64,000 nucleotides of DNA from a virus. Taxonomy: Duplodnaviria > Caudoviricetes. The stretch is from positions 42,296 through 106,295 of the IMG/VR virus record IMGVR_UViG_3300025735_000007. One strand, 5' to 3'. Position numbers and translations under genes: made by a program. The notes under the pieces were generated by a model. It saw nothing but the letters and a program-made list of their open reading frames with translations, had not been told where the DNA came from and searched no databases. Positions 29,617 to 61,752 of the stretch are shown piece by piece (within the stretch, counting starts at the first letter, position 1; each line of letters opens with the position of its first letter).

Positions 29617-31860
29617 ATGCAAGTCAACAGCCGGGTTCTGATCATGCGCGAGGCGATCACCAAGATCGTTCCGATGTTAACTCAGCGATCAGTTAAGGTA
29701 ACGCAGCAGGGCACGCAAGCGTTCGTCTCCTACAACCGCAAGACGTTGGCAATCGAGCGGGTGAATCTGCCCTATATCCCTGAAGACGCGAGTAACGAAC
29801 TTCTCGACGCCACGCAGGGCTTCCTGGACCACGAAGTAGGGCACATCCTGTTCACCGAGCAGAGCATCGTCCTGAAGGCCGAGAAGCTCAAGGTCCACAC
29901 GCTGCACAACATGATCGAGGACACGTTCGTCGAGCGGCGCATGGGCGAGCAGTTCCCCGGTTGCGGCGCAAACCTCACCCGCATGCACGGCTTCTTCCTG
30001 GCCGAATACATCGACACCCAACTGAAGGAAAAGCCGGAGCACTCGGCCGCGATCCTGATGGTCGTCGCGATCCGCGCATGGGCGGGCCAGCCGGCGTTCA
30101 TCGACTACATGGCAGACAAGTGGGGGCTGATGAAGGAGGTCGTCGACCGTCTCGGCAAGGACTTCCCGAAGATGCTGCGCAATGTGCAGAGCTCGGCAGA
30201 TGGTCTGAAGGTGGCGCTCGAAGCGAAGAAGCGCCTCGAGCCGAAGCCGGTTCCGAAAGCGCCGCCGCCACCGCCCGCACCCCCGCCGCCGGCACCGCCG
30301 AGTCCGCCGGAAGAGCCGAGCGAAGAGCCGCAGCCCGGAGCGGGCAGCCCCGGTGAGCCGGGCGACGAAGAAGACCCGGGCCAGCCTGGCGACATGCCGC
30401 CGCTGCCGGGCGATGAGCCACCCGAAGGTGAGGAAATACAGGAGCCCGTGCTGCCGCCCGAAGACGCTACCGCTGAAGAGCCGGCGCAAGAGCCTGCTGA
30501 AGAACCTGGCGCGGAACCCGCGCAGTCTGAAGAGCCCACAGCCGAAGCACCGGCGGGCGAGCCGGCCGACGAGGGAGATGAAGACGAGGGTGACTCGGAC
30601 CCGGGCGCAATGTCGGGCGCAGCCGGTGGGGAGTCGACCGAGGACGATGAAGAAGAGCAAGGCGATGGAGCGGGCGACGGTATGGCGGGCGGCGACGCGT
30701 CGGGTGACACCAGCGAATCGGACGACGGCGATGCCGGGGGCGAAGACGAGAATGGGTCGCGCAGCGCGCCGACTTCGGGCGCTGAAAAGAGCGTCCCGGG
30801 CGGCACGCCGGAAGAGGGCGCCAGTGACTCGAGCGGCACGATCGGCGAGTCGGACCCCGAGCGTGACCTGTTCAAGGAAATCGCCGAAGCCCCGATCAAG
30901 GACTTCGACGAGGCCGCGAGCGACGCGCTCTCGAAAGAGGCCCGGGAAGCCACCCGCAACGCTGCTTATTCGGTTTTCACGCGCGACGAGGACAACCTCG
31001 AGGTGCTGGAAGTGCCAGCCGAGTTCGATCAGGCGACGGTCGTGGAAATGCAGAAGCAGGTCGACCACATGATCGGCCCGCTTCAGAAAGACCTGCAGCG
31101 CGCTATCGCTGCGCGCTCGGCGTCAATCTGGACCGGTGGGCACCGGCGCGGCCAGTTGCACGGCGCGTCGCTCGCCCGGGTGCTGACCGGCCGCGACGAC
31201 GTGTTTCGCCAGAAGCAGGTGAGCCGCACGAAGGACGTGGCGGTAGAACTGGTGGTCGATGCGTCGGGCTCGATGTGGCGCAGGGGCAAGATAGTCGTCG
31301 CCGCCTACGCCGCTTATGCGCTGTCGGCCGTGCTCGACAACATCGGCATCGCGAACGAGGTGGTCGCCTTCAGCACGAAGGACTTCAGCAGCAAGACGGC
31401 GCGGGCCATGCGGGAGGAGGCGGTGGAGCATGGTCTGAACTACTCGCGCACCGCCGCGCTGGACATTCGCATTCTAAAGGCGTTCAACGAGCGGATGACG
31501 CCCGCGACGCGCCGGCGCTTCGCGATGCTTTCGACCGGCGGCGAAATGATGGAAGAGAACGTCGACGGCGAGTCCGTGCAACTGGCGAACCACCGTCTCC
31601 AGCAGCAGCGCTCTGCCCGCAAGGTCATGATGGTGCTCTCGGATGGGATGCCAGCATGCGGCGGGGGCTTGTCCCCGATCCTCAACGAGCATCTGAAGTC
31701 AGTGGTCAAGCAGATCGAGGCTCGCGGCACCGATGTCGTAGCGCTCGGCATTCTCGACGAATCGGTGAAGAAGTTTTACAGGCGCGCGATCGTCCTGAAC
31801 TCGGTCGAGGATCTGCCGCGCGTCGTGATGCATGAATTGCACAAACTCCTCGTGCATTAA
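29617..31860 (+). CDS. CobT-like protein: HExxH domain + Pro/Glu linker + vWA domain
   Basis: DHEVGH; long acidic low-complexity linker; VVDASGSM (MIDAS), NVDGES, VLSDG.P. Confidence 0.88.
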   Translation: MQVNSRVLIMREAITKIVPMLTQRSVKVTQQGTQAFVSYNRKTLAIERVNLPYIPEDASNELLDATQGFLDHEVGHILFTEQSIVLKAEKLKVHTLHNMIEDTFVERRMGEQFPGCGANLTRMHGFFLAEYIDTQLKEKPEHSAAILMVVAIRAWAGQPAFIDYMADKWGLMKEVVDRLGKDFPKMLRNVQSSADGLKVALEAKKRLEPKPVPKAPPPPPAPPPPAPPSPPEEPSEEPQPGAGSPGEPGDEEDPGQPGDMPPLPGDEPPEGEEIQEPVLPPEDATAEEPAQEPAEEPGAEPAQSEEPTAEAPAGEPADEGDEDEGDSDPGAMSGAAGGESTEDDEEEQGDGAGDGMAGGDASGDTSESDDGDAGGEDENGSRSAPTSGAEKSVPGGTPEEGASDSSGTIGESDPERDLFKEIAEAPIKDFDEAASDALSKEAREATRNAAYSVFTRDEDNLEVLEVPAEFDQATVVEMQKQVDHMIGPLQKDLQRAIAARSASIWTGGHRRGQLHGASLARVLTGRDDVFRQKQVSRTKDVAVELVVDASGSMWRRGKIVVAAYAAYALSAVLDNIGIANEVVAFSTKDFSSKTARAMREEAVEHGLNYSRTAALDIRILKAFNERMTPATRRRFAMLSTGGEMMEENVDGESVQLANHRLQQQRSARKVMMVLSDGMPACGGGLSPILNEHLKSVVKQIEARGTDVVALGILDESVKKFYRRAIVLNSVEDLPRVVMHELHKLLVH

Positions 31861-31874
31861 ACAGCCTGCTCGGA

Positions 31875-31919
31875 TAAGTAAGCGTTGACTTGACGATGCC
31901 ATAAGTCACCGCTTACTAT
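31875..31919. promoter_or_regulatory. Tandem pair of palindromic operators upstream of cobS-like gene
   Basis: TAAGTAA-GCGT-TGACTTG (31875) and TAAGTCA-CCGC-TTACTAT (31902). Confidence 0.78.
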
Positions 31920-31976
31920 ATAGTCTGTAACGAATGCAGCGAATTTCAAATTTACGTGATCATCACGGAGGATTTC

Positions 31977-33188
31977 ATGAGTGAATTGGGCGACAAGATC
32001 AAGTGCGCGGAATGCGGCGCACTGACCCACGCAATCCAGCTGCACCTGCCCGAAGCCCATCCGGGCATGACCGTCGCGGACTACCGCGCGAAATACCCGA
32101 ACGAATCGATCCTCTCGGCGCGCGCTGAGGCTGAACTCGCCCGCCGCGAAGCCGCAAAGGCTGCGCCGGCCGTTGCCGTCACCGAAGGCATGGCAGGTAG
32201 CGCGCTGCCCGCTAACGTGGTCGCGCTGAACCCCGAAGGCAAGACCACGGGCACGCTGCACGCCACGTTCGGGCTTCTCGACGGAGCCGGTAACGCGGTG
32301 GCGGCAGCGCTGAACGGTCGCAAAGAGCCGATCCCGGTCACGATCTTCGCGTCGCCGGCCTACGCCGAGCTCGTGCCGGATGTCGACCCCGGCTTCATTT
32401 TCGACATCGACAACCTGAAGAACGCCCTGATGGCGATTGAGCTCCGCAAGAACCTCTACGTGTGGGGTCACGCCGGGACGGGTAAGACGACCCTGATTGA
32501 ACAGATTTGCGCGCGCACTGGCCGCCCGGTTATGCGCGTGCAGCACTCGATCGGCACCGAAGAATCGCACGTCCTCGGTCAGTGGGTGGTGCGCGGCGGG
32601 CAGACGGAATTCCAGCCGGGCCTGCTCCCGCTTGCAATGCGCAACGGGTGGACCTACCTCGCCGACGAATACGACTTCGGTAACCCGGCCGTGCTAGCGG
32701 TGTATCAGCCGATTCTGGAGCCGGGTAAGTCACTGGTTATTAAAGACGCGCCGGACGAATGGCGCGTGGTCAAGCCGCACGAGAACTTCCGCTTCGTGGC
32801 GACGGGCAACACGAACGGCTCGGGCGACGACACAGGCCTGTATCAGGGCACCCAGATCCAGAACGCCGCGAACTACGACCGTTTCGGCATGGTGCTCGAG
32901 GCGACCTACATGAAGGCCGAGCTCGAGTCGGCGATTCTCGTCAACCGCGCGAAGGTGAAGAAGGAACACGCCGACAAGCTGGTCGACTTCGCCAACCGTG
33001 TGCGCGAGTCCTACAAGAACAAGGAAGTCTCGAACACGATCAGCCCGCGATGCCTGATCGACGCGGCCGACATCGGTCTGCGCAAGGGCAGCTGGCGAGC
33101 CGGCCTGACCCTCTCCTTCATCAACAAGCTCTCCGCGGTGGACCGCGCTGTCATTGACGGCGTTGCATCGCGCGTTTTCGACAAGTAA
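31977..33188 (+). CDS. CobS/MoxR-like AAA+ ATPase with N-terminal C2H2-like finger
   Basis: GHAGTGKT, ADEYD, ATGNT.GSGD..GLYQG, DRF; N-terminal CAEC..H...H. Confidence 0.9.
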   Translation: MSELGDKIKCAECGALTHAIQLHLPEAHPGMTVADYRAKYPNESILSARAEAELARREAAKAAPAVAVTEGMAGSALPANVVALNPEGKTTGTLHATFGLLDGAGNAVAAALNGRKEPIPVTIFASPAYAELVPDVDPGFIFDIDNLKNALMAIELRKNLYVWGHAGTGKTTLIEQICARTGRPVMRVQHSIGTEESHVLGQWVVRGGQTEFQPGLLPLAMRNGWTYLADEYDFGNPAVLAVYQPILEPGKSLVIKDAPDEWRVVKPHENFRFVATGNTNGSGDDTGLYQGTQIQNAANYDRFGMVLEATYMKAELESAILVNRAKVKKEHADKLVDFANRVRESYKNKEVSNTISPRCLIDAADIGLRKGSWRAGLTLSFINKLSAVDRAVIDGVASRVFDK

Positions 33189-33195
33189 TTCAGGA

Positions 33196-33849
33196 ATGAC
33201 CATGCTGCAATCGGCCCAATCGACCAATGCCAACAAACGCACCTCGACACGCTACGAGGATCACACGGGGATGCTGCACACACTCGCCAGGCGTGGCTGG
33301 GGCCGGTTACTGGAGAACGGGCTCGACACGCCCTATGAGGATGTGTTCCAGCAGATGTGCGAGTCGTTCGTGAAGTGCCAGGCGACCTACGACGCGTCGA
33401 AGGGCTTCAGTTTCTCCGCGTATTACGGGCGCTCGGTCTGGAACAACTTCAACAAGTGGGCCGAGCGCATCATCGAGGAGAAGCACACGCTCGGTATGGT
33501 CAGTGTCGAATCGCTTTGCGGCAGTGACGAAGATGGCGAGCGCGACGTCTACGAGTTCATCGAGCAGAACGAGGACGACGCCGACGATTCGCCCGAAGAG
33601 CGCCTCGCCGCGCGTCAGGAGAGCCACCGGCTCGCCCGCATGCTCTCGGACGACGCCAAGCGTATCGTCGCGCTGCTCGTCAACCCGACCGCGGACCTGA
33701 ACGCATGGATGGACGCGCGCAACGCCCGCATGCTGAAGAAGTTCCAGCACATCAATATTTGGATGCTCGGCGAGTATCTGGGCTTGAAGCGCGACAAGAC
33801 GGCGCGCCTGCGCCTGGAACTCGAACGCGTCTACGGGGTGACGCTGTAA
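33196..33849 (+). CDS. Sigma70-like factor (region 2 recognisable)
   Basis: YEDVFQQ...YDASKGFSFSAY region-2 signature, SVESL and PEE region-3 linker, C-terminal helix pair. Confidence 0.7.
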   Translation: MTMLQSAQSTNANKRTSTRYEDHTGMLHTLARRGWGRLLENGLDTPYEDVFQQMCESFVKCQATYDASKGFSFSAYYGRSVWNNFNKWAERIIEEKHTLGMVSVESLCGSDEDGERDVYEFIEQNEDDADDSPEERLAARQESHRLARMLSDDAKRIVALLVNPTADLNAWMDARNARMLKKFQHINIWMLGEYLGLKRDKTARLRLELERVYGVTL

Positions 33850-34463: not shown

Positions 34464-34491
34464 TTTCTAGTCACACGAACAGGGGAACGAG

Positions 34492-37400
34492 TTGAACATC
34501 AAGCACCTCCTGTCCGCGCGCAGCGATTTCTCGCTCGGCGAGTCCACCTTGCAGGTGGGCAAGCTGATCGAGCGCGCGAAGGAACAGGGTTATGAAACCG
34601 TCGCACTCGTGGACAACATGACCATTTCGAACATGGTCGCGTTCACCGACAAGGCGAAGAAAGCGGGCATCAAGCCGATCGTCGGTTGCACGATCCGGGT
34701 TGTCGATGATCCGACATATCGCAAGCCGGCGAAGACGTCGGGCGAGGCCGAGAAACCGAATCCGCTGATCAACCTGAAGGTCTACGCGCAGACGGACAAG
34801 GGCATCCGTTCGCTGATGAAGCTGCTCTCCAAGGGCAACTCGCCGGAATATTTCTACTATCACTCCCGTGTCGGCATCGAGGATGTCCTCGCGCTGGAGG
34901 ACTGCGCGATCTCGACCGGCGACTTCTACGGCCTGTTCCACCACAAGCGCTACGACGAAATCTTCTGGCGCCTCGTTCAGGTGCACGGCACGCGGCTGTG
35001 GGTCGAGTTCGTGCCGGGCAACACGCCGCTGCACAAGACGCTGAACGCTCGCGCGCTGGAGGTCATGCACAAGTATGAAATGCCCCCGATCGGCACCTGG
35101 CCCGCGCTCTACGCGACCGAGGATCAGGCCGACTCGCTGGACGTGCTGCGCGCGATCCTGAACAACAACAAGATGACCGACCGCTGGCTGAACAAGCCCT
35201 ACGTGCGCGACTTCTGCATCAAGGCGCCCGGCGACGTGGTGCGCGCGCTGGTCGGTCAGAGCCTGCCCGCGAAAGAGATCATTGCTGGAAATCAGGCGCT
35301 CGTTGACTCCTGCACCTACGAGTTCAAGAAGCTCGAGCCGTGCCTGCCGAAGATGGCACCGGACGAATTCAAGGCGCTGTGCGCCGAGGTTGCCAAGGGC
35401 TGGCAGCTGCGCTTTTCGGCGCCGGTGCTCGGTCATCAACCGTTGCCCGAAGACCTGCCGCAATACAAGCAGCGTCTCGCCTACGAGCTCGAAACGCTGC
35501 GCAACATGGGCTTTTCTGGTTACTTCCTGCTGGTGCAGCACATCGTCCAGTGGTCGAAGAGCAACGGCATTATCGTCGGCCCGGGCCGCGGTTCGGTGGG
35601 CGGCTCGCTGGTCGCTTACCTGATGGGCATCACGGACGTCGACCCGATCCGCTTCAATCTGTTGTTCGAACGTTTCATCAACCCGGAGCGTCTGGACTTG
35701 CCCGACGCCGACCTCGACTTCATGTCGAAGCGCCGCGCCGAGGTGATCGAATACATCGCCGAGAAGTTCGGGCGCGAGAACGTCGCCGGGGTGTCGAACT
35801 ACAACACAATGGGCGCCGCGGGCGTCATGCGTGATACGAGTCGCGTCCACGAGCTCAACCCGTTCGATTATGCCTGCTCGAAGCAGATGGAAAAACAGCA
35901 CGGGGTGTCGCTGTCGCTCGAGGAATCCGCCGCGATCGTGCCGGAGATCGACAAGTTCAAGGGCGCCTACCCGGAAATCTGGAAGCACATGATCAACCTC
36001 GAAGGCGCGACGCGCGGGCTCGGGCAGCACGCCGCGGGCGTGATCGTCGCCGGCGAGCCGATCGTCAACCGCGCGGTGGTCGAAACCCGCACCGGCGGCC
36101 CGGTATGCAACTGGGACAAGCGCGTGGTCGAGGACTGGGGGCTGATCAAGATGGACATCTTGGGCCTGACGAACCTCGACGTGATGAAGCTCGCCTCAGA
36201 CTACATCGAGGAGCGGCACGGCAAGAAGATCGACTTCCTGCGGCTGCCACTTGACGATAAAAGGGTCATGGAGGCATTTGGGCGCGGGGACACAACGGGC
36301 GTGTTCCAGTTCGAGTCGCCTGGCATGCGGCGTCTGTTGCGTGAAATGGCGCTCGCGGGCTCGGTGACATTCGATGATCTGGTCGCCGTCGTTGCACTGT
36401 ATCGCCCGGGTCCGCTGGATGCCGGTCTGTGCGACGACTACGTGGCGATCAAGCAGGGTGCGAAGATGGCCTACTACGAGCACCCGAACATGGCCCCGGC
36501 GCTGCGCGACACCTACGGCGTGATCGTGTATCAGGAGCAGGTCATGCAGATCGCGCGTGACCTTGCGGGCTTCACGTTTGCGGGCGCCGACCATCTGCGT
36601 AAAGCGATGGGTAAGAAGGACAAGGAGAAGATGGCCGAAATGCGCCAGAAGTGGGTCGACGGCTGCATGTCGCACTCTGGCATGACCGAAGGCTCTGCCA
36701 ATGCGCTGTTCGACAAGATCGAGGTGTTCGCAGGCTATGCCTTCAACAAGTCGCACTCGGTCGAATACGCGGTGATTTCCTTCTGGACGATGTGGCTGAA
36801 GGTCAACTATCCGGCCGAGTTCTTCGCGGCGTCGCTGACCGAGATCGACAAGGAAGAAAAGCGCGAGCCTCTCGTCATGGACGCGCGGCGCATGAACATG
36901 CAGGTGTTGCCACCTGACGTGAACCGCTCAAGCGCGCGGGTCGAGATCGTGGGCGAGGACAAGCTCTATGCCCCGTTCCAGGCGCTCAAGGGGCTCTCCA
37001 CCAACGCGGCAGGCTATATCGTCGATGCCCGCACGAAGTGGGGCAAGCCATTCGAGAACCGCACCGACCTGGATGCGGCGCTGAAGGCTGCCGGCTACAC
37101 CGGCCGGCACATCAACCAGGCGGTCAAGGACAAGCTGGTGCTCATCGGCGCATTCGCCGAGTGCGAGGGCGACAAGTTCCCCGCCATGCACCCCGATCGG
37201 CTGAAGAATCGCATCGAGCTACTGCCAGGGTTCACGGTCGATACTGTGAAAGCAGACAGAACGCTAAACGCTGAAAGGCTTGCACTGCTTGAACTGGTGC
37301 GCATCGCAGAGGAAACGCGGGCGTGCGAGAAGTGCTCGCTGAAGGGCGGGTGTCATCCGATGCCGCGCATCGGCAAGACGCCGAAGTTCATGGTGGTGTC

Positions 37401-37836
37401 CGACAACCCGAACTGGCAGGAGGAGAAGGCGGGCAAGCTGCTCGAAGGCGACAACGCGAAGCTCGTGATCAACGCGCTGAAGGAAGCAGGGCTCTCGGCT
37501 CACGACGGCTATTTCACCACGCTGGTGAAGTCCGGGAAGCCGAAGGACCAGAAGACGCTCACCAACGAACAGATCAACGGATGCTCGGAGTTTCTCAAGC
37601 GCGAGCTGGAGATCCTCAAGCCGCCGGTCATCGTCACGCTGGGCAGCAACGCGGCGCGCTTCTTTGCGCCGGGAGTGAAGGGCGGCTCGATGGAGCTTGC
37701 GGGCAAGGTGATCTTCGATCCGAAGCTCGACGCCTCGATTGTCTTTGGCATCAACCCGGGACAGATTTTCCATGACCCGGGCAAGTATTCGATTTTGCAA
37801 ACCGTGGCTACGAAAGTGGCCGACCTGATCACTTAA
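34492..37836 (+). CDS. dnaE: DNA polymerase III alpha (DnaE) with C-terminal family-4 UDG-like domain
   Basis: GPGRGS, PDADLDF, KMDILGL, YAFNKSH; C-terminal CEKC...ELEILKPPVIVTLG. Confidence 0.93.
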   Translation: MNIKHLLSARSDFSLGESTLQVGKLIERAKEQGYETVALVDNMTISNMVAFTDKAKKAGIKPIVGCTIRVVDDPTYRKPAKTSGEAEKPNPLINLKVYAQTDKGIRSLMKLLSKGNSPEYFYYHSRVGIEDVLALEDCAISTGDFYGLFHHKRYDEIFWRLVQVHGTRLWVEFVPGNTPLHKTLNARALEVMHKYEMPPIGTWPALYATEDQADSLDVLRAILNNNKMTDRWLNKPYVRDFCIKAPGDVVRALVGQSLPAKEIIAGNQALVDSCTYEFKKLEPCLPKMAPDEFKALCAEVAKGWQLRFSAPVLGHQPLPEDLPQYKQRLAYELETLRNMGFSGYFLLVQHIVQWSKSNGIIVGPGRGSVGGSLVAYLMGITDVDPIRFNLLFERFINPERLDLPDADLDFMSKRRAEVIEYIAEKFGRENVAGVSNYNTMGAAGVMRDTSRVHELNPFDYACSKQMEKQHGVSLSLEESAAIVPEIDKFKGAYPEIWKHMINLEGATRGLGQHAAGVIVAGEPIVNRAVVETRTGGPVCNWDKRVVEDWGLIKMDILGLTNLDVMKLASDYIEERHGKKIDFLRLPLDDKRVMEAFGRGDTTGVFQFESPGMRRLLREMALAGSVTFDDLVAVVALYRPGPLDAGLCDDYVAIKQGAKMAYYEHPNMAPALRDTYGVIVYQEQVMQIARDLAGFTFAGADHLRKAMGKKDKEKMAEMRQKWVDGCMSHSGMTEGSANALFDKIEVFAGYAFNKSHSVEYAVISFWTMWLKVNYPAEFFAASLTEIDKEEKREPLVMDARRMNMQVLPPDVNRSSARVEIVGEDKLYAPFQALKGLSTNAAGYIVDARTKWGKPFENRTDLDAALKAAGYTGRHINQAVKDKLVLIGAFAECEGDKFPAMHPDRLKNRIELLPGFTVDTVKADRTLNAERLALLELVRIAEETRACEKCSLKGGCHPMPRIGKTPKFMVVSDNPNWQEEKAGKLLEGDNAKLVINALKEAGLSAHDGYFTTLVKSGKPKDQKTLTNEQINGCSEFLKRELEILKPPVIVTLGSNAARFFAPGVKGGSMELAGKVIFDPKLDASIVFGINPGQIFHDPGKYSILQTVATKVADLIT

Positions 37837-37848
37837 AAAGGAACACTC

Positions 37849-38508
37849 ATGACCAACGAAGCACTGTCCGTAGCAGAAATGGCCGCACTGGTTGGCGACC
37901 TCGAAACCCCGCCGACTGCCCCGATCGTCAATGCGACGATCGCCAGTGCACCGGCAGCCGCCGCGCCCGCACCGACGCCCAAGACCGCCGAGCCGACCGC
38001 ATCGGGCCTGAAGGTCTTCGTGGACGTCGACCAGCTGAAGAAGGATCTGCAGGTGAATCCGAACGATCTGGACGACGCGGTGATCAGCCAGGCGCCGATG
38101 TTCGTGCACTACGCGCAGCAGGCCGCGCAGGCTCGCCGCCAGTGGGAAAAGAGCAAGCTCGCCGCCGAGGTCACGGAATCCCAACTCGACGCAGCATGGC
38201 GCAAGAAATTCCTCGAAGACGGCACCAAGGTGACCGAGAAGGTGGTGGAGAACGCCGTGAAGGCCGACCCGCGCTACATCAAGGCTCACACGCAGGTGAT
38301 CGAGGCGCGCGCGCTGTATGACATCGCGAACGACGCGCGCGAAGCCTACATGCAGCGCAAGGACATGATCGTGCAGGTCTCAGTCGATCGCCGCCGCGAG
38401 CGTGAGGGCCAGCTACGCATCCAGGCTGCGCGCGAGGGCGAGATTGCCGCGCAGTCGGGTCGCGACGCGGCGCTCGCCGCTGAAGCTGCGCGTCGCCAAG
38501 CAGCCTGA
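37849..38508 (+). CDS. UvsY-like recombination mediator
   Basis: LKKDLQVN..L, AVKAD, EAY.QRKDMI resemble T4 UvsY helices; next to SSB and RecA. Confidence 0.55.
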   Translation: MTNEALSVAEMAALVGDLETPPTAPIVNATIASAPAAAAPAPTPKTAEPTASGLKVFVDVDQLKKDLQVNPNDLDDAVISQAPMFVHYAQQAAQARRQWEKSKLAAEVTESQLDAAWRKKFLEDGTKVTEKVVENAVKADPRYIKAHTQVIEARALYDIANDAREAYMQRKDMIVQVSVDRRREREGQLRIQAAREGEIAAQSGRDAALAAEAARRQAA

Positions 38509-54351: not shown

Positions 54352-55335
54352 ATGATCGAACTGCAAGGAAAAGGCTGCACCGTCAAGGTCATCGCCGATA
54401 GCGTCGCGCACAGCGTGAACGGCAAGCGTATCACCACGCTGCAACTGCGCTACTGGCGCGCGATCCACGCCGAGTTCATGACGCACCGCGTGCTGAGCCG
54501 CAACGCCAGCTCGTCGCGCGCCATACCGGTCGCAAAGATGCTGGAGCAGGTGCGCAATGATCCGGCGGGGCCGATCCACTGGGGAGCCAATCAACCCGGC
54601 ATGCAGGCTCATGCTGAATGTGACGCGCCGATTGAACTGGTGGACTACGAGCTCATGGACGAGCCGACCGATTCAGTGCACGTCGAAACGCTGAATCAAT
54701 TCTCGCGCGAGACAGCGTGGAAAGAAGCGGCGACTCGCGCTGCCGAGGTCGCCGAAGCCTTCTCGAAGGCGGGCTACCACAAGCAGGTCGTCAACCGGCT
54801 GCTGGAGCCGTTCCAATACATCAGCGTGATCTGCACCGCGACGGAGTGGGAGAACTTCTTCGCGCTGCGCGTGCACCCGGATGCGCAACCCGAGATTCAG
54901 GATCTTGCAGCCACGATGCAAAAGGCGATGGCGAAGTCGAAGCCCGTGGTTCGCACCGGATCGTGGGGCGACCCCGAAACATGGCACTTGCCCAACGTGC
55001 TTGACCACGAACGCAAGCTCTATCGTCTGGACGTGCTGCAAGCGCTCTCGACGGCCCGCAATGCCCGCGTGAGCTATCTGACTCATGACGGGGCAGAACC
55101 GAGCCCTGACAAGGATCTGGAGCTCTACGAGCGCCTGGTGGGTGCCGAGCCACTGCACGCGAGCCCGACCGAGCACATCGCCGCGCCGCTCTCGCAGGGC
55201 CACCGCACCGGCGGCCAGAAAAACTTCGTCGGTTGGCACCAATACCGTTCCGACGTCGAGGTGCGCATTGAGCGCGCGAAAAAGCTCGCTGCCGAAACGG
55301 GCGGCAGCAAACGCTTCGCGATTGCCTCACTATAA
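54352..55335 (+). CDS. thyX: ThyX-like flavin-dependent thymidylate synthase
   Basis: HAEFMTHRVLSRNASSSRAIP (RHRx7S-like), HKQ.VNRLLEPF, AQPEI, HASPTEH. Confidence 0.82.
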   Translation: MIELQGKGCTVKVIADSVAHSVNGKRITTLQLRYWRAIHAEFMTHRVLSRNASSSRAIPVAKMLEQVRNDPAGPIHWGANQPGMQAHAECDAPIELVDYELMDEPTDSVHVETLNQFSRETAWKEAATRAAEVAEAFSKAGYHKQVVNRLLEPFQYISVICTATEWENFFALRVHPDAQPEIQDLAATMQKAMAKSKPVVRTGSWGDPETWHLPNVLDHERKLYRLDVLQALSTARNARVSYLTHDGAEPSPDKDLELYERLVGAEPLHASPTEHIAAPLSQGHRTGGQKNFVGWHQYRSDVEVRIERAKKLAAETGGSKRFAIASL

Positions 55336-55339
55336 TGAA

Positions 55340-55357
55340 TAAGTAAGCGGTGAGTAA
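55340..55357. promoter_or_regulatory. Palindromic operator after TATAAT
   Basis: TAAGTAA-GCGG-TGAGTAA. Confidence 0.62.
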
Positions 55358-55400
55358 TCACTGCAACACCCTGAAATCCTTTTGAAACCGGAGTGCCTAC

Positions 55401-56081
55401 ATGACGCAACTGCAAAACACCTTGAACTCATCCGACTATCACGCAGCGGTCCTGCAGACCGAGAGCAAGCCCGGCGAACTGAACTTCGGCCCGGCCACGC
55501 TGCTGATGGCGCTGAACCTCGCGGTGTCGGCCGCCAATGCGCTCGATCAGGTCAAGCGCGCGATTTACTACGGTCGCGACATCGACCAGGAAAAGGCGAT
55601 GGAGGCGATTCAGGCCGTGCAGGGCACCGCCAGCGCGCTCGCGTTCCCGGTCGCCACGAAGCGCTACCGCGACCCGCGCGACGTGGACTTCTTCGCGCAG
55701 AACCTCTCCCCGGAAGCGGCAAAGAGCCTCAGCCCGGCCAACGTCGATCCGCGCCTGCTGCACGCAGCGCTGGGCAAGTTCACGGAAGCGGGCGAGTTCA
55801 TCGAGGCGATCCTGCCGACGCTGATGGGCGCGGCGGTCGACAAGGTGAACGTGCTCGAAGAACTGGGCGACGGCAGCTGGTATGACGAGATCGCGCTCGA
55901 CGCGCTCGGCTACAGCCGCGAGCAGTGCAACTTCGTGAACATCAAGAAGCTGCAGGACAAGAAGGCGGGCCGCTACCAGAAGGGCGCGTTCGACCCGAAC
56001 GCCGCGGTCGAGCGCGACGTCGATGCCGAACGCGCATTGCTCGACGCGGGCGCGCAAAAGGCTGTCCTGGTCGCAGCGTAA
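55401..56081 (+). CDS. MazG-like NTP pyrophosphohydrolase
   Basis: LLHAALG..TEAGE...EELGD..WY...NIKKL...RY. Confidence 0.8.
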   Translation: MTQLQNTLNSSDYHAAVLQTESKPGELNFGPATLLMALNLAVSAANALDQVKRAIYYGRDIDQEKAMEAIQAVQGTASALAFPVATKRYRDPRDVDFFAQNLSPEAAKSLSPANVDPRLLHAALGKFTEAGEFIEAILPTLMGAAVDKVNVLEELGDGSWYDEIALDALGYSREQCNFVNIKKLQDKKAGRYQKGAFDPNAAVERDVDAERALLDAGAQKAVLVAA

Positions 56082-61154: not shown

Positions 61155-61170
61155 CTCGTATGGGGTGAAT

Positions 61171-61752
61171 ATGACAATTATCGTGGGCCTCGACCTCGAA
61201 ACGACCGGCCTCGACCAGAGCGCGGGCCACCGCATCATCGAAGTGGCTGCGACGCTCCATGAGCTCGAAACCGAGCGCTTCATGGGCAAATACGTCCAGC
61301 GCATCAACCCGCAACGCCCCATCGACCCGGACGCCCAGCGCGTGCACGGGATCACGTTCGACATGCTCGCCGCAGAGCCGACGTGGGAGCAGGTCGCACC
61401 CAACGTGCACCGCGTGCTGACCGCGGCGCAGTTCATGGCGGGGCACAACGTGATCGGTTTCGACTGGCCGTTCCTCGCGGGCGAGTTCCAGCGCATCGGC
61501 ATGGCGGTGCCCCAGGTGGAGCTGATCGACACGATGGTCGAGGCGCGCTGGGCGACGCCGCTGGGCAAGCTGCCGAACCTCGGCGAGCTGTGCTTCGCCT
61601 GCGGCATCGACTACAACCCGGCGCTCGCACACGCGGCGGAATACGACATCACCGTCAACATGCAGGCTTACTTCGCCGCGCGCCGCATGGGCTTTTTCGG
61701 CCCGAAGATCGTGCAGCCGGTGCCTGCAGTCCTGGAGGCAATCGCAGCATGA
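61171..61752 (+). CDS. DEDDh 3'-5' exonuclease (DnaQ/epsilon-like)
   Basis: LDLETTGL, HN..FD, IDT, HAAEYD. Confidence 0.92.
   Translation: MTIIVGLDLETTGLDQSAGHRIIEVAATLHELETERFMGKYVQRINPQRPIDPDAQRVHGITFDMLAAEPTWEQVAPNVHRVLTAAQFMAGHNVIGFDWPFLAGEFQRIGMAVPQVELIDTMVEARWATPLGKLPNLGELCFACGIDYNPALAHAAEYDITVNMQAYFAARRMGFFGPKIVQPVPAVLEAIAA

Follow-up and report, generated by a model that had tools for sequence, protein, structure and literature searches.

A phage C-family DNA polymerase with a uracil-DNA glycosylase-like domain of altered catalytic motifs that replaces the OB fold and the tau-binding end

Introduction

Domains with the fold of uracil-DNA glycosylase (UDG) are found on or beside replicative DNA polymerases from family A (phage PolA) and from family B (poxviruses), and the lineage described here adds the C family to them. 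The subject of this work is a gene at positions 34492–37836 of a 64,000-nucleotide stretch of viral DNA (the window), which is the final 64 kb of the 106,295-bp IMG/VR virus record IMGVR_UViG_3300025735_000007, the completeness of which is estimated at 96%. The gene codes for a DnaE-type polymerase that ends in a domain resembling family-4 UDGs. All coordinates below are those of the window.

The closest described system is the DnaE variant called DnaEX, in which the OB fold and the C-terminal domain are replaced by an archaeal-type UDG domain, PF03167, and which occurs as an extra polymerase on replicons in Yersinia pestis and in Salmonella enterica (Timinskas, Balvociute, Timinskas and Venclovas, NAR 2014; PMC3919608). 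One sentence and a figure label are given to it in that paper, with no treatment of the catalytic residues, the metal site or the function. For the C family, this was the only report found in the literature on DnaE–UDG proteins of phages or phage-plasmids; the combination is not described in Kazlauskas 2011 and 2016, and no paper analysing the catalytic state or the function of a DnaE–UDG protein was found.

Two groups of A-family phage polymerases provide further comparisons. In the SPO1-like and SP15-like phages (YerA41, phiLo), a family-4-type UDG is likewise fused to the phage replicase, and these PolA-fused domains are among the nearest sequence relatives of the domain studied here. Cryo-electron microscopy showed that the UDG of these proteins touches the 5′ template strand ahead of the active site. 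Their UDG retains the catalytic motifs and has glycosylase activity that is coupled to repair by PolX and ligase, whereas the present domain lacks the catalytic Asn and His. In this respect it is more like the PolA of N4-like phages, a replicative polymerase which, in the work of Czernecki et al. as cited in PMC13697223, carries a UDG fold without the catalytic residues. The N4-like proteins differ in belonging to the A family and having the UDG domain at the N-terminus, while in our case a C-family polymerase bears it at the C-terminus, where it substitutes for the OB fold and the tau-binding domain. A processivity role has been proposed for fused UDG domains (PMC3201878). In the B-family holoenzyme of poxviruses, the UDG (vaccinia D4, mpox E4) is also a UDG-fold part of the replicase, which contacts the template strand and aids processivity, but there the UDG is a family-1 protein that has kept its enzymatic activity, and it forms a subunit of its own bridged by A20/A22, unlike the fused domain described below.

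Domain organization of the fusion protein

34492..37836, plus strand: DnaE–UDG-like fusion gene, 1114 amino acids plus stop, TTG start; PHROG 405 match over residues 7–1112
37198..37233, plus strand: junction segment RLKNRIELLPGF, residues 903–914 (family consensus RLxDQxELxPG)
37276..37833, plus strand: predicted complete family-4 UDG fold, residues 929–1114 (Pfam, predicted models and structural comparison)

The product of the open reading frame (ORF) is a C-family, DnaE-type Pol III alpha. Pfam matches above the cut-off followed each other as PHP (residues 10–133), DNA_pol3_alpha (323–558), finger (561–727), HHH_6 (803–893) and UDG (PF03167, 962–1071), the last with an E value of 1.2e-12 and 48.6 bits against a cut-off of 24.3, which assigns the domain to the UDG superfamily, while PHROG 405, annotated as DNA polymerase, covers the protein nearly from end to end. 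The order PHP, Pol3, (HhH)2 and then PF03167 is that of DnaEX. Thus, the protein is a further member of a known architecture and the fusion itself is not new; a preliminary description of this locus, made from the sequence alone, had implied a novelty that is overstated in view of the 2014 paper.

No OB-fold or tau-binding Pfam domain was matched in the 1114-residue protein. In the NCBIfam DnaE model, residues 7–892 corresponded to profile positions 9–885 of 1146 with a score of 766 bits, below the cut-off of 1002. Since the match to the DnaE profile ends at position 885 of 1146 and residues 928–1114 match whole family-4 UDG chains, the OB fold and the tau-binding domain are truly replaced by what is predicted to be a UDG fold. 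The same exchange of the OB/tau end had been put forward in the preliminary description, and the Pfam matches, the end of the NCBIfam profile and the structural match all bear it out.

The predicted structures point to family 4. A model of the domain (residues 895–1114, from a 54-sequence alignment; pLDDT 95.4, pTM 0.90) had its best PDB matches in Foldseek among the family-4 UDGs 4ZBY, 1L9G, 1VK2 and 1UI0 (E ~1e-13, TM 0.80–0.85), followed by UdgX, and family 5 and TDG/MUG ranked much lower. When residues 928–1114 of the full-length model (pLDDT 90.9, pTM 0.82) were compared with whole family-4 UDG chains, Z scores of 24–25 and root-mean-square deviations of 1.9–2.3 Å were obtained, thus the UDG fold proposed earlier for the C-terminus held in the predicted model. 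The curated family-4 models TIGR00758 and NF040953 scored below their cut-offs (55.8 against 125.3 bits and 60.8 against 250 bits), as did the UdgX model TIGR03914 (44.7 against 189.95 bits), and the structural likeness to UdgX was no better than that to family 4. The Pol III alpha structures 5FKU and 3E0D, both of which contain the OB domain, could be aligned with the full-length model out to residues 1064–1074, which is a weak hint that the UDG-like domain may be placed like the OB domain.

The junction segment, the R903 of which is nearly invariant in the homologues, is presumably the counterpart of the DnaE stretch that precedes the OB fold (ExELLGxY in bacteria). Its part RIELLPGF (907–914) was considered as a beta-clamp-binding motif and rejected: the consensus is RLxDQxELxPG, the Gln of which is not kept here, and the position is that of the pre-OB segment of DnaE. 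Nor was any conserved clamp-binding motif seen in the homologue alignment between the GAFA and RLxDQxELxPG segments.

Catalytic motifs and their conservation

37399..37413, plus strand: motif 1, SDNPN (canonical GE[AG]PG), from alignments to solved family-4 UDGs and canonical relatives
37510..37542, plus strand: motif 3 region, YFTTLVKSGKP (canonical Y.TN.VKCRP); T1010 replaces the uracil-binding Asn, S1014 the iron-sulfur (Fe-S) Cys
37747..37761, plus strand: motif 2, GINPG (canonical HP[AS]); the catalytic His is N1088

The pocket residues were mapped by HMMER alignments to solved family-4 UDGs and by MAFFT alignment with canonical relatives, and both gave the same result. Approximately 180 residues could be aligned with the enzymes of Thermus thermophilus (Tth UDGa, 1UI0), Thermotoga maritima (1L9G) and Sulfolobus tokodaii (4ZBX) at 22–25% identity. 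The domain shares with them the CxxC, the last Cys, the Glu equivalent to E47 and the VK of motif 3, while it departs from them in the SDNPN of motif 1, in the replacement of Asn80 by Thr and of His155 by Asn, and in the third Fe-S Cys, which is Ser. In the pocket of Tth UDGa as defined by Xia et al. 2017, E41, G42, E47 and F54 correspond to D971, N972, E977 and L984, N80 to T1010 and H155 to N1088, and N89 lands in an indel region. The changes of GE(A/G)PG to SDNPN, of N..KC.P to T..KS.K and of HP to NP had all been listed in the preliminary description and proved to be correctly located. In Tth UDGa, k2/Km falls by over three orders of magnitude upon the H155S mutation and approximately 40-fold upon N80A (Xia et al. 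2017, PMC5387724).

These positions were followed in the domains of 119 representatives of clusters at ≤50% identity. The place of the motif-3 Asn was taken by S, A, T or G, that of the motif-2 His was N in 66, S in 23 and H in 13 representatives, and the canonical E..N..H set was present in only about 10. Since the Asn and the His are lost across the representatives and the scores lie below the family-4 cut-offs, canonical uracil excision is unlikely for the whole degenerate clade. A MUG-like chemistry through N972 of motif 1 and N1088 of motif 2 was also considered, but it was rejected as N972 is not conserved (A in 39, C in 30 and G in 16).

Despite these losses, the motifs have not drifted freely. 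Motif 1 has the clade consensus D-[ACG]-P-[NST]; D or E stands at the D971 position in 113 of the 119, and E or D at that of E977 in 112, while P973, T1009 and P1089 are kept in 104, 114 and 116, respectively. The residues conserved in 75–100% of the representatives were D971, P973, E977, Y1007, T1009, K1013, K1016, E1038, P1044, G1051 and P1089, and the conserved basic residues are K1013, K1016, R1056 and K1063. The identities to homologues (91, 82, 68, 64%, and so on, over residues 900–1114) tracked those of the whole protein (88, 76, 62, 61%, and so on). As the motif residues are conserved and the UDG-like domain is about as conserved as the whole polymerase, it is under constraint and hence functional.

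The best-conserved positions of the domain fall in the three former active-site motifs, that is, in the parts forming the base pocket, as one would expect if it were still a base-flipping reader, or a glycosylase of changed chemistry, that senses or excises uracil or another template base ahead of the polymerase through D971, E977 and N1088. In SP15-like PolA, the fused UDG is active and scans the template, and a sister set of DnaE–UDG proteins with canonical motifs makes template scanning a plausible ancestral role; furthermore, family-2 MUG/TDG enzymes work without the motif-2 His. Nevertheless, we consider such an activity unlikely in this clade, since the Asn that hydrogen-bonds uracil has been lost throughout the clade together with the His, a residue without which Tth UDGa is impaired more than 1000-fold, N972, which in this protein mimics the position of the catalytic Asn of MUG, is variable, and the scores are far below the NCBIfam family-4 cut-offs. 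Besides, no uracil-linked base-modification pathway was seen in the window, where only ThyX-like, MazG-like and NrdAB genes were noticed. It is doubtful, too, that the clade represents a new functional class of the UDG fold, which would be either a non-excising base-flipping reader with a D-x-P / E / N-P pocket that pauses the replicase or a glycosylase with new catalysis, some members of the clade bearing a Cys3-His or relocated-Cys metal site.

The former iron-sulfur site

37324..37356, plus strand: C945-x2-C948-x5-C954-H955, N-terminal part of the former Fe-S site (CEKCSLKGGCH, read in the sequence)
37582..37584, plus strand: C1031, the retained fourth Fe-S Cys position (INGC), from the alignment of representatives

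The [4Fe-4S] cluster of family-4 UDGs has four Cys ligands (CxxC, the KC of motif 3, and a last C). Here C945, C948 and C1031 are kept and the third is S1014, hence the loss of one Fe-S Cys asserted in the preliminary description is correct. That description also regarded C954, near the CxxC, as a new Cys, a view that could not be maintained, and a rewired Fe-S site is not a property of the family. A Cys stands at the C954 position in canonical-motif relatives that keep the KC Cys as well, therefore C954 is ancestral and not new. Among the 44 of 119 representatives that lack the KC Cys and have C945, C948 and C1031 together with H955, only about nine have C954, and about 18 instead carry a Cys within motif 1. 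For these reasons, C954 was rejected as a family-wide substitute for the lost Cys, although it may possibly be a ligand in the present protein. According to the alignment, the conserved companion of CxxC and C1031 in the clade is His955 and not C954. Two canonical-motif relatives (P0248 and P0259) read GCH at the C954-H955 position, thus the restriction of H955 to the degenerate clade hinges on the alignment. None of these Cys are present in approximately 44 of the 119 representatives, that is, about a third, which implies that a metal centre is dispensable for the function of the family.

Possible function of the UDG-like domain

The reading we prefer, with a probability of about one in two, is that the domain is a non-catalytic nucleic-acid-binding module on the tail of the polymerase, which would take part in handling the template or other DNA. 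The fold, the clade-wide losses, the constraint on the domain, the absence of clamp genes and the precedents in other replicases speak for it. The phage's own C-family replicase would have had its OB fold and tau-binding tail swapped for a family-4 UDG domain, which would then have turned into a pseudo-enzyme: the fold is kept, as are those parts of the three motifs that define shape, whereas the uracil-reading Asn, the His stabilising the leaving base and the third Fe-S Cys are lost. In the place where an OB fold would normally act, the domain may bind the template strand or DNA close by, and in this way it may keep a replisome for which the phage encodes neither clamp nor clamp loader nor tau from leaving its template. 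We infer in this way the DNA binding, the role in processivity or template handling and the lack of glycosylase activity; the conservation of K1013, K1016, R1056 and K1063 fits nucleic-acid binding.

Some observations weigh against a non-catalytic binding module. Its best-conserved positions are the former active-site motifs, including the acidic residue at the E41 position, which a plain DNA clamp would not obviously need, thus some chemistry in the base pocket is possible. In addition, the beta clamp of the host could supply processivity.

The absence of a clamp gene from the window had been pointed out in the preliminary description, and this could be extended to the whole 106-kb record: the Pfam clamp and clamp-loader families PF00712, PF02768, PF09116 and PF13177 had no match in it. 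Neither was a tau/gamma homologue found in the record, nor a trimeric dUTPase by Pfam, nor any UDG besides the DnaE tail. The lack of tau/gamma is what one would also look for if the domain were a protein-interaction hub that replaces the tau-binding C-terminus and couples the polymerase to the DnaB-type helicase of the phage, to the single-stranded DNA-binding protein (SSB) or to a second polymerase. The domain takes the place of exactly the tau-binding part of DnaE, it stays joined to the HhH domain in the split forms described below, and a conserved protein of unknown function is encoded 13 nt downstream. However, the conserved residues lie on the motif face that UDGs use for DNA and do not make up a demonstrably new surface, and we regard the hub as rather improbable.

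If a dead UDG indeed provides template handling or processivity, it would explain how a DnaE replisome does without a clamp, a clamp loader and tau of its own, and it would be a clean case in which the fold of an enzyme has been reused as a DNA-binding module.

Distribution of the architecture

A homologue search scored on residues 900–1114 returned 268 proteins, 120 of which were listed. At least 120 clusters from independent sources thus contain the fusion: the Pfam domains of the polymerase core, the fingers, HHH_6 and UDG are found in all the matches listed, and PHP is present in all but two, which are short and probably truncated. Many of the matches listed sit on contigs of 100–115 kb, and the closest named relatives among them were Paraburkholderia and Burkholderia cepacia assemblies. 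Phage records that match at least 80% of the UDG-like domain numbered 25. A DnaE with this C-terminal domain occurs in Pseudomonas phages nickie, hairong, ZY21 and phiK7B1, in Rhizobium phages RHEph10, RHph_X66, V1VFA-S and B1VFA, in Stenotrophomonas phages, in Escherichia phage Cyrano and in Methanobacterium virus PhiF1. Among plasmids, 409 records matched, mostly of 105–117 kb, with the five-domain architecture in 181; they include Cupriavidus (51% identity), 154 Acinetobacter, 114 Escherichia and 29 Klebsiella records. The E. coli and Klebsiella plasmids of ~110 kb and the SSU5-like phage Cyrano match the present domain at 25–29% identity, and these SSU5-like plasmids belong to the DnaEX lineage of Timinskas. 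Several of these ~110-kb phages and phage-plasmids are of medical and agricultural relevance, namely those of Acinetobacter baumannii, the SSU5-like ones of E. coli and Klebsiella, the Nickievirus phages of Pseudomonas syringae and the Rhizobium phages.

The present protein sits in a Burkholderiales-associated branch. The gene order is shared with phage nickie (CobT-like, CobS-like, small ORFs, dnaE, an unknown ORF, SSB, FEN, RecA and SbcCD), that is, with Nickievirus.

Such a distribution leaves hardly any room for an artefact of assembly or gene calling, or for a decaying relic without function. The loss of the catalytic residues is the only observation in favour of it, while the gene is a single uninterrupted frame with a high and even GC content at third codon positions, the domain is conserved to the same degree as the whole enzyme, and the same architecture recurs in the clusters, phage records and plasmid records counted above. 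The worry raised beforehand, that the fusion might be a sequencing artefact absent from relatives, has thus been dispelled.

A second set of DnaE–UDG proteins (P0236, P0238, P0240, P0243 and P0246) keeps GEAPG, N..KC.P, HPA, all the Cys and the HLHxHS of PHP. Judging by these motifs, they are probably active C-family polymerase–glycosylase fusions. The DnaE–UDG fusions therefore apparently come in active and degenerate forms, in parallel with the SPO1/SP15-like and N4-like PolA. The linker between the HhH and UDG domains is longer in the canonical-motif set.

Split forms also exist. Many relatives are proteins of ~390 amino acids (among them P0125, P0130, P0123 and P0147) that consist of the HHH_6 and UDG-like domains only and start just before FAxYxFNKSH. 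On a metagenome contig (L004:3-1741), the gene of an HNH/NUMOD3 homing endonuclease lies immediately upstream of such a piece, and at this place a free-standing endonuclease or an intron appears to interrupt DnaE. On some A. baumannii plasmids, the HHH_6–UDG piece is annotated as "uracil-DNA glycosylase family protein". In the split forms, the UDG-like domain always remains joined to the HhH domain. Inteins with LAGLIDADG or DUF559 endonuclease domains were seen in the polymerase core of P0232 and P0240 (one each) and of P0246 (two), and those of P0232 and P0240 lie within ~50 residues on either side of the break site of the split forms.

Polymerase core, proofreading and neighboring genes

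34481..34486, plus strand: Shine–Dalgarno-like AGGGGA, 5 nt before the TTG, read directly in the sequence
34492..35322, plus strand: PHP domain, residues 1–277 (Pfam PHP; aligns to the PHP domain of 4GX8, Z 29.5)
35458..36672, plus strand: palm/thumb and fingers, residues 323–727 (Pfam)
35704..35712, plus strand: catalytic Asp405 and Asp407 (DLPDADL, read in the sequence)
36154..36156, plus strand: catalytic Asp555 (alignment of homologues)
36898..37170, plus strand: (HhH)2 / beta-binding-type domain, residues 803–893 (Pfam HHH_6, E 3e-10)
61165..61752, plus strand: DnaQ-like 3′–5′ exonuclease (PF00929, 84 bits; PHROG 192 "DNA polymerase exonuclease subunit", E 1.8e-48)

The alignments of homologues begin at residue 1 of the protein counted from the TTG. 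Residues 1–897 of the full-length model matched E. coli Pol III alpha (2HNH) with a Z score of 45 and 34% identity. The catalytic aspartates, taken as the equivalents of E. coli D401, D403 and D555, are D405, D407 and D555, and as they are invariant across 61 full-length homologues the polymerase looks active. In the PHP domain of this clade, the N-terminal H-x-H metal motif is gone: the sequence reads LLSARSDFS here and HLHxHS in the canonical-motif DnaE–UDG relatives. This fits the presence of a separate DnaQ-like exonuclease, the probable proofreader, which the preliminary description had already pointed out and which the Pfam and PHROG matches substantiate.

The gene 13 nt downstream of dnaE (37849–38508, plus strand) codes for a conserved protein of 219 amino acids, in which a short, conserved peptide at the N-terminus is followed by a linker rich in Ala and Pro and, at the C-terminus, by a helical domain with many invariant Arg and Asp residues. 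It had no Pfam or NCBIfam match and only PHROGs 1069, 4969 and 2058, all of unknown function. Its place between the polymerase and a gp32-like SSB makes it a candidate for an accessory protein of the replisome.

Directly upstream of the replication genes (29617–33188, plus strand), a CobT-like VWA protein (747 amino acids) and a MoxR/CbbQ-type AAA ATPase (410 amino acids) are encoded; the ATPase has a weak ROS/MucR-like N-terminus, and the order cobT, cobS, dnaE is as in Pseudomonas phage nickie. A small ORF (33154–33849, plus strand) overlaps the end of the AAA gene and gave a weak match to sigma-70 region 2 (E 6.8e-5, just below the Pfam cut-off), thus it may code for a phage sigma-like factor ahead of the replication operon. 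Further downstream (54352–56081, plus strand), a thymidylate-synthase-like protein was assigned to PHROG 85, with a match to ThyX (TIGR02170) over 44 residues only and well below the cut-off, and the gene of a MazG-like pyrophosphatase comes after it.

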